A stretch of DNA of 64,000 bases from an uncultured Alphaproteobacteria bacterium. Its GTDB lineage: Bacteria > Pseudomonadota > Alphaproteobacteria > Rs-D84. Shown here one piece after another: positions 5,652 to 27,646 of the stretch. The notes below the pieces were generated by a model that saw nothing but the letters and a program-made list of their open reading frames with translations, did no database searches and was not told the origin of the DNA. Each line of letters starts with the position of its first letter. Within the stretch, counting starts at the first letter, position 1. The stretch is taken from positions 322,246-386,245 of the forward strand of contig CAMORN010000001.1 in the NCBI GenBank assembly GCA_946623825.1, in the 5' to 3' direction. The translations under genes and the position numbers were made by a program.

Positions 5652-7391
5652 ATGGCAGCGGGAATAAAAAATCATAATCGTGACAGATACGAACGTGTGC
5701 GCAGATTAATGTGGATAAAATGCGAAGCATGTGGTCGTCTGGTTTATTATAAAGATTATAAAAATAATCACTATGTTTGCCCACGTTGTGGTCGTGCATT
5801 TATAATGACGCCAAAACAAAGATTTGATTTATTGTTTGATAATATCAATTGGCAAAAATTTGAATTACCAATAACAAGTGATGACCCATTAAATTTCACA
5901 GACAGAATGTCTTATAAAGAAAGATTAAATGAGGCTCGTGAAGACACCGGCACAAATGATGCTATTTCCACTGCAGACGGTCAGGTTGCAGGTATAAACA
6001 CAACAATTTGTGTTATGAATGGCGATTTTATGATGGGGTCTATGGGACGTGCTGCGGGTGATGCAATTGTTGCAAGTATTGAACATGCAATTGAATTAAA
6101 AAATCCATTTGTTATGGTTACTTGCAGTGGCGGTGCCAGAATGCAAGAAAATATTTTATCTTTGATGCAAATGGCACGAACAACAGTTGCTGTGAATAAA
6201 TTACATGACAATAAAATTCCATACATTGTTATTTTAACAGACCCTACATTCGGTGGTGTTTCTGCATCTTTCGCGATGTTGGGCGATATCCATATTGCAG
6301 AAAAGGGTGCACGTGTCGGATTTGCGGGGCGTCGAGTTATCGAACAAAATATACATGAAAAATTACCGTCTAATTTCCAAACCGCAGATTATTTATATGA
6401 ACATGGTATGGTTGATATAGTTGTTGATCGCGACAGATTAAAATCTGTGTTGGAAAAAGTTTTGACTGTTTTAACAAAACAACCACGCGAGGCAAAAGTT
6501 ATAGATGTAAAAACACCTAAATTTGAACCTCAAAAGAAATCTCGTGATTTAGGTAAAACCCCAGAATACGACCGTGTTTTGTTGGCTCGTAATGAAAACA
6601 GACCACATTTCTTAGATTATGTTGCGGGTATTGTTGATGATTGGACATATCTGGCGGGCGACAGAAATTTTGCCGAAGATGCTGCGATGTGTGGCGGTAT
6701 TGGTTATTGGTATGGTATACCGTCTGTAATCATTGGACAAGAAAAGGGCAGAACAATTGAAACCCGTCAACAACATCGTTTTGGTATGCCAAACCCAGAA
6801 GGATACAGAAAGGCTCAGCGTTTGATGAAATTGGCTGAAAAATTTAATTTGCCTTTGATTTCATTGTTTGACACTGCGGGCGCTTTTGCCGGTGGTGCAG
6901 CAGAAGAACGCGGTCAATCTCAGGCTGTGGCATCAACTATTGCAATGGGTCTGAAAGTTAAAACGCCTTATGTTGCGGTCAATGTAGGTGAAGGTGGTTC
7001 TGGTGGTGCAATTGCCATTGGAACAGGCGACAGAATTATGATGCTTGAAAATGCAATTTATTCTGTGATTGCACCTGAATCTTGTGCAAGTATTTTATGG
7101 AAAGATAACAAGTTTAAGGCCGAAGCAGCAACTGCATTAAAATTGACTGCTCGTGATATGGCATCATTAAATGTGATAGATAAAATCATATCTGAACCAG
7201 CGGGCGGTGCACATCAAGATTGGCAAACAACAATGGAATTGGTTGCAAAAGCAGTTGCGGACGCTATCAACGAATTGCAAGAAATTCCATTGGAAGATTT
7301 GGTTCGAGAACGCGCCAAGAAATTTATTTCTATGACCAGAGATGTTGAAATTTTCCAACCGGGGCATATCCCAGAAGAAAAATTGATATAA
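5652..7391 (+). CDS. accD-accA: Acetyl-CoA carboxylase carboxyltransferase, fused beta (AccD) and alpha (AccA) subunits
   Basis: The N-terminal half has the AccD zinc ribbon CEACGRLVYYKDYKNNHYVCPRCG and GGARMQE. The C-terminal half has AccA motifs FGMPNPEGYRKAQRLMKLAEKF, DTAGAFAGGAAEERGQS, GEGGSGGAIAIG, EPAGGAH. One uninterrupted ORF. Confidence 0.85.
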   Translation: MAAGIKNHNRDRYERVRRLMWIKCEACGRLVYYKDYKNNHYVCPRCGRAFIMTPKQRFDLLFDNINWQKFELPITSDDPLNFTDRMSYKERLNEAREDTGTNDAISTADGQVAGINTTICVMNGDFMMGSMGRAAGDAIVASIEHAIELKNPFVMVTCSGGARMQENILSLMQMARTTVAVNKLHDNKIPYIVILTDPTFGGVSASFAMLGDIHIAEKGARVGFAGRRVIEQNIHEKLPSNFQTADYLYEHGMVDIVVDRDRLKSVLEKVLTVLTKQPREAKVIDVKTPKFEPQKKSRDLGKTPEYDRVLLARNENRPHFLDYVAGIVDDWTYLAGDRNFAEDAAMCGGIGYWYGIPSVIIGQEKGRTIETRQQHRFGMPNPEGYRKAQRLMKLAEKFNLPLISLFDTAGAFAGGAAEERGQSQAVASTIAMGLKVKTPYVAVNVGEGGSGGAIAIGTGDRIMMLENAIYSVIAPESCASILWKDNKFKAEAATALKLTARDMASLNVIDKIISEPAGGAHQDWQTTMELVAKAVADAINELQEIPLEDLVRERAKKFISMTRDVEIFQPGHIPEEKLI

Positions 7392-25705: not shown

Positions 25706-26068
25706 TTATTCACATTTTTCAAGCCAAACATCGTAAGCGTCATCTTGCAGCGGGTTTTGTCCCGGTTCGTTGCGGTTCATCCAACCACTGAAAATACGCA
25801 AGTCTGATTTTGTATAAATTTCAACAAAAGCAAAATAATTTTCAGCATCAAATGGGTCGGATTGCTTGCAACTTCTTACTTTAATTGTTAAGCCTTCGAT
25901 GCGGATATTTTTGTCTTTTGCTGCGAACACTGTTTGTGTTTTTCCCGCGGCTTTGTTCATAACACGCAATATTGCGGTGTCTTTTTCTATATAAGCAAAA
26001 GAATCATGTGCGGAAAAACACATGGTAAAAACACAAAATAGGGCAAAAAACACTGTCTTTTTAATCAT
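25706..26068 (-). CDS. DUF2155 domain protein (secreted)
   Basis: Trimmed to ATG 26068 (signal MIKKTVFFALFCVFTMCFSA). AILRVMNKAAGK...IEGLTIKVRSCKQSDPFD...FSGWMNRNEPGQNPLQDDAYDVWLEKCE fits the alphaproteobacterial DUF2155 pattern. Confidence 0.7.
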   Translation of the reverse strand: MIKKTVFFALFCVFTMCFSAHDSFAYIEKDTAILRVMNKAAGKTQTVFAAKDKNIRIEGLTIKVRSCKQSDPFDAENYFAFVEIYTKSDLRIFSGWMNRNEPGQNPLQDDAYDVWLEKCE

Positions 26069-26131
26069 GGTTATAATAATACAAGGCTTTTTAATATAAG
26101 TCAAATTTTATAAAATATTTTAATAAAAAAA

Positions 26132-26160
26132 TTGACAAAATAAAATATTGTGTATATAAT
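26132..26160 (+). promoter_or_regulatory. Consensus sigma-70 promoter abutting the NTase start codon
   Basis: TTGACA (26132-26137), exactly 17 nt, TATAAT (26155-26160). ATG at 26167 is 7 nt after the -10, and there is no Shine-Dalgarno. Confidence 0.55.
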
Positions 26161-26166
26161 TTGAGT

Positions 26167-27096
26167 ATGTATGAAGTAAAAAGAGAGATTTTAGATTCAT
26201 TTTGTCTTGCTCAAAACCCATTGGCAGCAGAGCGAGATTATATTGAATGCAATATATTGAATCAAATTTTTCAATTCCCATATTTTTGTAATAATTTTGT
26301 GTTCACTGGTGGTGGTACAATATCCAAAATTTATCACATGGGAAACAGAATCAATCAAGATATTGACTTGGCGTGCTTTGATTTCAAGGAAGTTGTTCCA
26401 ACACGCAGTGTCGGTCAATTGGGTAAATTCAAAAGCAGATTTAGAGATTATATTTTTACTGAATTGAAAGAAAAAATTGAAACAGGTTTAAGTGAATTTG
26501 GTAAATTCCAAATCATTACAGATGCACAATGGCGTGCAGAACGTCCTGAATTACCAAGACATTCTACATCAACATTGCATATTCAATATGCTTCTATGGT
26601 AAATCCAAAATTGAAAGATTACATCAGTATTGAATTTATTCCACGTCATTACAGTTCTGATAAAATTAAATTTAATTCTGTTGTTCCTTATTCAATCAAA
26701 GAAAGCGAAGTATCAACAAAAATACCAAACATTAAATTTGAACAGACTTTCTGGGATAAAATATATGCGTTATATTCTATAAATAAAAACGTTGTTTCGA
26801 GAGATGGTTTATCCAGACATTTTTATGATGTGATTCATATTGTTCCGTATGTAACATTGGAAGAAACACAAAATATGTTCTGGGATACGGTTGAATATCA
26901 AAAATTATACACAACTAAAAACCTGCAAATGCCGAATAAAACATCTGGTTTAGATATTGTTCCAGACACAGAAAAATCACAGGTCTTGGAACAAGATTAT
27001 AGTGCTAACAAAGACCAATATATGACACCAATTGTTCCGTGGGAATATATTATGTTGGGCACAAATCAACTGCAACAAAAAATAAGGGGGCTGTAA
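26167..27096 (+). CDS. AbiEii/DUF1814-like nucleotidyltransferase
   Basis: FVFTGGGTISKIYHMGNRINQDIDLACFD (pattern lkGGTaL...R.S.DiDf) and a C-terminal WDKIYALYS...LSRHFYDVIHIV (K..Al..R...RDlyDl). Confidence 0.65.
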   Translation: MYEVKREILDSFCLAQNPLAAERDYIECNILNQIFQFPYFCNNFVFTGGGTISKIYHMGNRINQDIDLACFDFKEVVPTRSVGQLGKFKSRFRDYIFTELKEKIETGLSEFGKFQIITDAQWRAERPELPRHSTSTLHIQYASMVNPKLKDYISIEFIPRHYSSDKIKFNSVVPYSIKESEVSTKIPNIKFEQTFWDKIYALYSINKNVVSRDGLSRHFYDVIHIVPYVTLEETQNMFWDTVEYQKLYTTKNLQMPNKTSGLDIVPDTEKSQVLEQDYSANKDQYMTPIVPWEYIMLGTNQLQQKIRGL

Positions 27097-27097
27097 T

Positions 27098-27616
27098 ATG
27101 GTATATGTATTTTCAGACCCTCATTTTTATTCAGAAAGAATTATCAAGGTTGCAAATCGCCCATTTCATTCTGTTGAAGAAATGAACGAAACAATAATAA
27201 AAAACTATAATCTGGTTGTGCAAAAACAAGATGTTTGTTATTGGTTGGGCGATATTATGTATGATGCATCAAAAGAAAAAGTTCATGAAATATTGGGTCG
27301 TATGCACGGTCGTAAATATCTTATTCGTGGCAACCATGATATGAATCATTCTGAAACATGGTGGAAAGCAGCCGGATTTGATAAAGTTTTTTCCCATCCT
27401 ATTTATGATACAGAAAATCATGCAATATTATCACACGAACCATTGCCAGAATTTGGCAGTGTCCCAGGAATCGTAAATTATCACGGACATATTCATATAA
27501 ACGGTTATGATTTTCAAAATCATCAAAATTGTATAAATGTCTGTGTGGAAATGACCGATTATAAACCTGTTCCGTTAATTAATCCTTTGTTATTACAAAA
27601 GCAAAATACAAAATAA
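27098..27616 (+). CDS. Calcineurin-like metallophosphoesterase (172 aa)
   Basis: VFSDPHF, WLGDIMYD, IRGNHD, ILSHEP, YHGHIH metal-binding motifs in canonical order. AAGGGGG RBS. The start lies 1 nt after the NTase stop. Confidence 0.8.
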   Translation: MVYVFSDPHFYSERIIKVANRPFHSVEEMNETIIKNYNLVVQKQDVCYWLGDIMYDASKEKVHEILGRMHGRKYLIRGNHDMNHSETWWKAAGFDKVFSHPIYDTENHAILSHEPLPEFGSVPGIVNYHGHIHINGYDFQNHQNCINVCVEMTDYKPVPLINPLLLQKQNTK

Positions 27617-27646
27617 TAAAAAACTGCCCATACGGACAGTTTTTAT
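27617..27646. terminator. Bidirectional terminator
   Basis: A-run, ACTGCCC-ATAC-GGACAGT (one mismatch), T-run, between convergent genes. Confidence 0.55.

Follow-up and report, generated by a model that had tools for sequence, protein, structure and literature searches.

An AbiEii-type nucleotidyltransferase joined to a phage-type metallophosphoesterase in an uncultured alphaproteobacterial genus: a candidate toxin-antidote-like pair

A stretch of 64,000 nucleotides from an uncultured alphaproteobacterium of rumen or gut with a genome of about 0.93 Mb (assembly GCA_946623825.1, contig CAMORN010000001.1, positions 322,246 to 386,245; hereafter the window) encodes a nucleotidyltransferase (NTase) of the AbiEii/DUF1814 type followed directly by a calcineurin-like metallophosphoesterase (MPE). 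As judged from sequence, a phosphoesterase of phage type here takes the place that belongs to the antitoxin in AbiE-type systems. Our tentative preference, held at somewhat less than an even chance, is that the pair forms a two-gene toxin-antidote-like module, derived from AbiE/MenAT systems, in which neutralisation by the MPE is enzymatic. The NTase would, by homology, be a toxin that adds nucleotides to the 3'-CCA ends of transfer RNA (tRNA) and so blocks aminoacylation; an ancestral upstream antitoxin of the DUF6088/AbiEi kind would have been replaced by the downstream, translationally coupled MPE. The MPE probably either undoes the product of the NTase or acts on the NTase itself, and the most likely mechanism would be hydrolysis of a phosphodiester or pyrophosphate product, such as removal of the nucleotides that the NTase had added to tRNA ends. 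The toxicity of the NTase, its tRNA target and the substrate of the MPE are here putative assignments. This reading is preferred because of the family and fold of the NTase, its AbiEi-guarded sister group and the absence of a hidden antitoxin; because the two genes are always linked, co-evolve, are under selection and, in one genome, show an order of decay in keeping with it; and because of the invariant metal ligands and diesterase-type fold of the MPE, the published precedents and the lack of a CCA-adding enzyme in the host.

By profile and by fold the first protein is an AbiEii/MenT-type enzyme. The initial annotation had recognised AbiEii/DUF1814 signatures in its open reading frame, and the motifs quoted there are present; the protein matches Pfam PF08843 (AbiEii) with an expectation value (E) of 5.7e-17 and 62.9 bits, above the curated cut-off of 22.5, and 16 AbiEii models of PADLOC (best PDLC02289, 1e-29, full length), while NCBIfam holds no model that matches it. 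In an AlphaFold2 (AF2) model with a predicted local distance difference test (pLDDT) score of 91, the top Foldseek matches are MenT4, MenT3/TglT and MenT1 of Mycobacterium tuberculosis, with a probability of 1.0 and template modelling (TM) scores of 0.5-0.6, although sequence identity to these is only 7-14%. The residues G48, G49, S/T51, D65, D67, D119, E156, R160, K198, A201, H218 and D221 are invariant in 33 homologues, and K54 is conserved in 32 of the 33. The protein thus carries the hGG[ST] and DxD motifs, a third acidic residue and the K..A...[RH]..D motif, and it is predicted to be catalytically intact. Residue 51, which is Thr in 21 of the homologues and Ser in 12, corresponds to the phospho-acceptors T65 of AbiEii and S78 of MenT3. 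An antibiotic nucleotidyltransferase was also considered as an identity for the protein and was set aside, as ANT(2'') gave only a weak and partial fold match.

The NTase shares with AbiEii of the AbiEi-AbiEii systems of Streptococcus agalactiae and Lactococcus lactis its DUF1814/PF08843 domain, the GG-S/T, DxD and K..A...[RH]..D motifs and the position of the phospho-acceptor. The arrangement in the window differs from AbiE in having no AbiEi (COG5340, winged helix-turn-helix), a downstream partner that is a metallophosphoesterase, and a fixed chromosomal site that is inherited vertically. With MenAT1 and MenAT3 the presumed chemistry, addition of nucleotides to tRNA acceptor ends, may be shared; there is no MenA-type antitoxin here, and neutralisation by induced auto-phosphorylation is not to be assumed.

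The closest relatives of the NTase outside the genus indicate what the pair lacks. When the profile of the NTase family was searched against 1.84 billion representative proteins, 13 full-length clusters were found at E <= 1e-82, followed by a gap to about 1e-33. Beyond this gap, all seven of the nearest outside relatives that were checked are preceded by an overlapping DUF6088/AbiEi_4 gene. The NTases of these DUF6088-AbiEii pairs, which score about 115-130 bits with the family profile, are the sister clade to the NTase of the window. The pairs occur on plasmids and chromosomes of Pseudomonadota; they differ from the pair described here in the length of their NTases (330-350 residues), in the overlapping upstream antitoxin-like gene of about 205 codons and in having no MPE. 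They are present in two genomes of this genus as well (locus L206, 1794-3438, minus strand, genome G616; locus L207, 1161-2833, plus strand, genome G632), so that the classical system and the MPE-linked variant are found in different genomes of the same genus. DUF6088 was absent from 29 pair-carrying genomes, in a search that detected its positive control, and from the genome of the window. No cognate antitoxin gene (AbiEi/COG5340, DUF6088 or MenA) adjoins the NTase gene, and no conserved open reading frame of at least 40 codons was found in an alternative frame or antisense within the pair region. The claim that no winged helix-turn-helix gene of the AbiEi type lies upstream is upheld: the open reading frames there and a match to PF09923 (1.2e-21) identify the upstream neighbour as a divergent DUF2155 gene. 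Unusually long AbiEii relatives (P0149, P0205 and P0216) were inspected for a fused phosphoesterase domain, and none was found.

The linkage between the two genes is constant within the genus. The NTase is carried by 46 of 257 genomes (18%), intact in 45 and frameshifted in one, and the MPE gene lies directly downstream in every one of the 46; a 47th MPE match is cut by the end of its contig, as is one of the 46 carriers. Contigs from Logan and the Joint Genome Institute (JGI) hold NTase homologues of down to 39% identity in the same slot between the DUF2155 gene and rplS, again followed by the MPE, and the most divergent members of the family among the 1.84 billion proteins are likewise encoded there. 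Because 46 genomes and independent metagenome contigs all show this arrangement, the pair is not a chance association. The single base that separates the NTase stop codon (TAA, 27094-27096) from the MPE start codon at 27098 agrees with the spacing first reported, and the NTase gene contains, close to its 3' end, the Shine-Dalgarno sequence of the MPE gene, which implies translational coupling. A G-rich Shine-Dalgarno sequence is found at this position in nearly all related loci too, with intergenic distances of -4 to +24 nucleotides.

No such pairing was found elsewhere. There is no NTase beside the MPE at 85 viral or phage-like MPE loci or at 26 MPE sites in 15 other Pseudomonadota genomes, no MPE beside AbiEii at 13 AbiEii sites outside the genus, no AbiEii beside the MPE on the MPE-bearing plasmids examined and no pairing outside the genus in JGI metagenome contigs. 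Conservation of the two genes as neighbours, on which the proposal of a functional pair had been made to depend, is thus borne out within the genus and in metagenome contigs and not beyond them. Full-text literature searches likewise returned no paper describing an AbiEii/DUF1814 toxin with a metallophosphoesterase, in keeping with the initial impression that the pairing had not been described.

The history of the locus can be read from genomes that lack the pair. In ten such genomes the DUF2155 gene and rplS are separated by about 50-110 bp, leaving a clean empty site, and at several of these sites the terminator persists but nothing is left of the pair. In eight carriers the pair has kept its place beside DUF2155 although the rplS operon now lies elsewhere. 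A tree of XseA and TsaD shares its well-supported clades with a tree of NTase and MPE, and the carriers are scattered over the species tree such that presence and absence must have switched at least 7-8 times, on a sample of only ten empty genomes. The simplest history is one in which the genus ancestor already had the pair, which then descended vertically and was cleanly deleted on many independent occasions.

Both genes are under purifying selection, with ratios of nonsynonymous to synonymous substitution of 0.03-0.15 in close pairs. The NTase is the faster evolving, with a median pairwise identity of 43.5% and a rate about four times that of its housekeeping neighbours, compared with a median identity of 69% for the slowly evolving MPE. 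When species divergence is removed, the distances of the two proteins remain correlated (partial r = 0.63, p 0.0005), whereas nine control pairs of neighbouring genes give partial correlations of -0.03 to 0.28; the NTase and the MPE co-evolve and are functionally coupled. These data bear on the possibility that a phage-derived MPE gene landed behind an orphan and perhaps inert AbiEii gene, the two being neighbours in an operon with no shared function. Such an origin would accord with the failure to find the pairing outside the genus and with the presence in the same genus of AbiEii genes that have no partner. It is very unlikely in view of the unbroken co-occurrence of the two genes, their joint loss, the conservation of translational coupling, a co-evolution signal far above that of neighbouring gene pairs and the invariance of both active sites.

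The second protein, described initially as a phosphoesterase of 172 residues with the motifs DPHF, GDIMYD, GNHD, SHEP and GHIH, contains all of these and matches PF00149 (Metallophos) with an E of 1.8e-7 and 32.2 bits (cut-off 21.5). Its match to phrog_547 ('phosphoesterase') is far stronger, at 1.6e-35. The five metal and catalytic motifs (DPHF, GD, GNHD, SHEP and GHIH) are invariant in 41 sequences, and D7, H9, D52, N79, H80, H113, H131 and H133 show no variation even with phage-like relatives added; the enzyme is thus predicted to be catalytically intact. Matches to NCBIfam are weak only (PdeM 0.0016, far below its cut-off). The comparison with PADLOC, proposed at the outset, supports one member of the pair and not the other: the NTase matches AbiEii models as given above, and the MPE matches no component model, with nothing significant in PADLOC v2 (best 0.018, 'Cyclase'). 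The AF2 model of the MPE (pLDDT 95) resembles phage MPEs in BFVD with TM scores of 0.74-0.78, and the nearest solved structure is PDB 1XM7, followed by LpxH, Rv0805 and Mre11. The nearest characterised folds are accordingly those of nucleotide pyrophosphatases, diesterases and nucleases, with no enzyme of the PPP type among the top solved folds. An analysis of charge with respect to nucleic-acid binding was uninformative either way.

The affinity of the MPE is with phages. It belongs to the COG4186/phrog_547 phosphoesterases, which include Aq_1665 of Aquifex (PDB 1XM7) and of which those outside the genus lie beside no NTase gene and have no assigned function; homologues are encoded in 1,135 phage records. 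The closest relatives outside the lineage, of 41-49% identity, lie in phage-like contigs, and in a tree the clade of the genus (support 98) is nested among viral sequences, with other alphaproteobacterial homologues falling apart from it. Two features set the copies of the genus apart from phage relatives, in which both are absent: an insertion YDF after GHIH (residues 134-139; 27497-27514 of the window) and a conserved C-terminal tail NP[FY]...R.F.R (residues 161-172; 27578-27613). The tail is of low confidence in the AF2 model and flexible, and it has diverged in the clade containing the window, which is also where the NTase evolved fastest. It is a candidate for contact with the NTase; the tail and the co-evolution signal, taken together, suggest contact of the MPE with its partner as well.

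Homologues of the MPE have also been observed in other settings. In the SPO1-like Bacillus phage Riley (locus L157, 74887-83360) the gene of the homologous phosphoesterase gp108 has a helicase gene on one side and two exonuclease genes on the other, which places it in the replication and recombination module. The cryptic Veillonella plasmid pVJL1 (locus L211, 4.8 kb) encodes a homologue of 38.6% identity as one of its four genes, with no AbiEii.

There are published precedents for the enzymatic reversal of a toxin's action at tRNA ends. Small alarmone hydrolases (SAH) reverse the pyrophosphorylation of tRNA CCA ends by toxic small alarmone synthetases (toxSAS; bioRxiv 10.1101/2021.04.30.441581), and trimming by the CCA-adding enzyme PcnA and by RNase PH works against MenT3 (PMC11541572). 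The toxSAS-SAH systems (for example the toxins FaRel2 and PhRel2, countered by the SAH antitoxins ATfaRel and PaSpo) follow the same logic as that proposed here, in that a co-encoded metal-dependent hydrolase reverses a modification of the tRNA 3'-CCA end; the folds are unrelated, an RSH synthetase and an HD hydrolase there as against a DUF1814 NTase and a calcineurin-like MPE here, and the chemistry of the present pair is putative.

The tRNA background of the host is relevant to the same question. None of 30 genomes of the genus yielded a class II CCA-adding enzyme (PF01743) in a search that detected the family in 10 of its 14 controls, and in the genome of the window the 3'-CCA is encoded by every one of the 43 tRNA genes. 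CCA addition and repair seem to have been abandoned entirely in this lineage, and so no housekeeping repair of that kind would be available against the extension of tRNA ends. The same facts could be taken to indicate a domesticated, non-toxic pair for processing or repair of RNA ends, in which the MPE would heal 2',3'-cyclic phosphate or 3'-phosphate ends and the NTase would re-extend them, as an optional substitute for CCA-end maintenance. The fixed site among housekeeping genes with vertical inheritance, the purifying selection on both enzymes and the presence of a P-loop kinase gene (AAA_33/KTI12) near one phage relative of the MPE would be compatible with such a role. It is nonetheless distinctly unlikely, since about 82% of the genomes of the genus lack the pair and likewise have no CCA-adding enzyme, the NTase evolves much faster than housekeeping genes and has antitoxin-guarded toxins as its closest relatives, and known MenT enzymes add untemplated runs of C or U and do not rebuild CCA (PMC11541572). 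The stronger idea that the NTase replaces the CCA-adding enzyme was rejected: the whole genus is without that enzyme, with or without the pair, and the NTase is thus no essential substitute.

A further alternative takes the MPE to be a partner of the opposite sign. The NTase would be silenced by phosphorylation of Ser/Thr51, and the MPE would be a dedicated phosphatase that re-arms it, an activator or reset factor in a switch of writer and eraser. Residue 51 is Thr or Ser in all 33 homologues, co-evolution of the two proteins would suit a protein substrate, and it has been reported that phospho-AbiEii is dephosphorylated in vitro by a Ser/Thr phosphatase, with phosphatases being proposed to reactivate the toxin (bioRxiv 10.64898/2026.01.19.700257). 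Against this, phosphorylation of MenT1, MenT3 and AbiEii requires an antitoxin and none was found here, an activator constitutively co-expressed with its toxin would be self-harming, and a Ser/Thr after GG belongs to the general catalytic motif of NTases, so that its conservation is not specific evidence. The published eraser is, moreover, described as a PstP homologue, an enzyme of another type, and the fold of the MPE is nearest to LpxH, Rv0805 and Mre11, not to protein phosphatases. On balance this alternative is rather unlikely, though it is the main rival to the toxin-antidote reading. With regard to the type of phosphatase, PstP-type enzymes are PP2C/PPM phosphatases. Phosphatases of the PPP type, such as those resembling lambda phosphatase, carry the motifs GDxHG, GDxVDRG and GNHE. 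Membership of the MPE among PPP-type Ser/Thr protein phosphatases was considered and rejected, as its motifs SDPHF, GDIMYD, GNHD and GHIH and its fold do not fit.

The one decayed copy of the pair bears on which of the two genes is the harmful one. In genome G088 (locus L036, approximately 6350-6365) a one-base frameshift splits the NTase (TDR|DWHALENKEHF) and leaves the MPE intact; a harmful NTase would be expected to decay first in this way. The roles could in principle be reversed, with the MPE as a harmful nuclease or diesterase and the NTase as a modifying antitoxin, in the manner of the type VII system HepT-MntA. Some NTases, as in HepT-MntA, do act as antitoxins, and the MPE superfamily includes nucleases such as Mre11. 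This arrangement would be highly improbable given the intact MPE beside the broken NTase in G088, the solitary occurrence of homologous MPEs in more than 1,100 phage records, plasmids and bacteria, and published work in which DUF1814 enzymes are toxins wherever tested.

Several observations weigh against a toxin-antidote-like module. It is unusual for genes of toxin-antitoxin or defence systems to keep to a single chromosomal site and to be inherited vertically. The argument from decay is drawn from one frameshift in a metagenome-assembled genome, which may be an assembly error. The MPE family is found without a nearby NTase in its many phage records, on plasmids and in other bacteria, and its basic function would therefore be independent of an NTase. 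Different orphan AbiEii NTases with no recognisable partner are found in two genomes of the genus, and an antidote may therefore not be obligatory in this host. Finally, published AbiEii/MenT toxins are silenced by phosphorylation of an active-site Ser/Thr and can be dephosphorylated by a phosphatase, and so a phosphoesterase could be an activator and not an antidote. The initial proposal of a toxin-antitoxin or defence pairing accordingly stands in part: it is supported by an NTase of AbiEii/MenT type, a constant and co-evolving MPE and the absence of AbiEi; restriction to one genus, vertical inheritance at a fixed site with repeated loss and recognition by PADLOC of the AbiEii half alone are not what a toxin-antitoxin or defence island would lead one to expect.

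If the toxin-antidote reading is nevertheless followed, the pair suggests a form of control that has not been described for the AbiEii/MenT family. The literature ranks AbiE among the most abundant systems of defence against phages, and relatives of the MenT type are active in Mycobacterium tuberculosis. How these toxins are inactivated and reactivated is under active study; their induced auto-phosphorylation was reported between 2024 and 2026, and the enzyme that reverses it is not yet known. The broader proposition that the COG4186/phrog_547 phosphoesterase is a dedicated enzymatic eraser for DUF1814 toxins, which strips nucleotides from tRNA ends or resets the toxin, is an unlikely one. Were it true, the role of the homologues found in over 1,100 sequenced phages would be counter-defence against systems of the AbiE type, and the gut bacterium described here would have acquired a phage eraser as a substitute for its antitoxin. 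The pair offers a first functional hypothesis for a very common family of phage phosphoesterases and is a simple, easily cloned two-gene system in which the enzymatic undoing of a toxin's product or of its modification can be tested. The reach of the finding is limited to one uncultured genus, and it can be tested directly in E. coli.

Table 1. Coordinates of the pair and of its signals in the window
Feature	Position	Strand	Basis or remark
Sigma-70 promoter, TTGACA-17-TATAAT	26132..26160	+	consensus match 12/12
NTase gene, AbiEii/DUF1814 (MenT-like), 309 aa	26167..27096	+	PF08843, PADLOC AbiEii
Shine-Dalgarno sequence GGGGG of the MPE gene	27086..27090	+	within 3' end of the NTase gene; read from sequence
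MPE gene, phage-type calcineurin-like metallophosphoesterase (COG4186/phrog_547 type), 172 aa	27098..27616	+	PF00149, phrog_547
Terminator hairpin, G+C-rich, T runs on both sides	27619..27644	.	flagged on - strand

The pair was initially said to be bracketed by a consensus promoter of its own and a terminator and to lie between housekeeping genes, and all of this is confirmed (Table 1): beyond its immediate neighbours the locus is flanked by tsaD and xseA on one side and by rplS-trmD-rimM-rpsP on the other. The -10 element ends six nucleotides before the ATG at 26167, and the NTase mRNA is probably leaderless, with its start placed from the geometry of the promoter. In nearly all related loci TTGACAAA is kept together with a -10 element that ends about 6-10 nucleotides upstream of the ATG. 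The hairpin at the 3' end of the pair is predicted to be a terminator common to it and to the convergent rplS operon; an equivalent hairpin follows the MPE gene in most related loci and, as noted above, persists at several empty sites.

The two orphan AbiEii genes of the genus (locus L208, 1480-2541, minus strand, genome G685, 354 codons; locus L209, 1854-2861, minus strand, genome G661, 336 codons) lie directly upstream of a gene of the Sua5/YciO/YrdC family (tsaC-like), with neither DUF6088 nor an MPE; that of G661 also adjoins a divergent gene for a NUDIX hydrolase. At the other side of the promoter region in the window, the DUF2155 gene probably starts at the ATG at 26068 on the minus strand, which gives a signal-peptide-like N-terminus (MIKKTVFF...), rather than at the TTG at 26104. 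A second promoter, TTGACT-17-TATTAT at 26104-26076 on the minus strand, ends seven nucleotides ahead of this ATG. The DUF2155 gene thus also looks leaderless, and leaderless starts may be common in the host organism.

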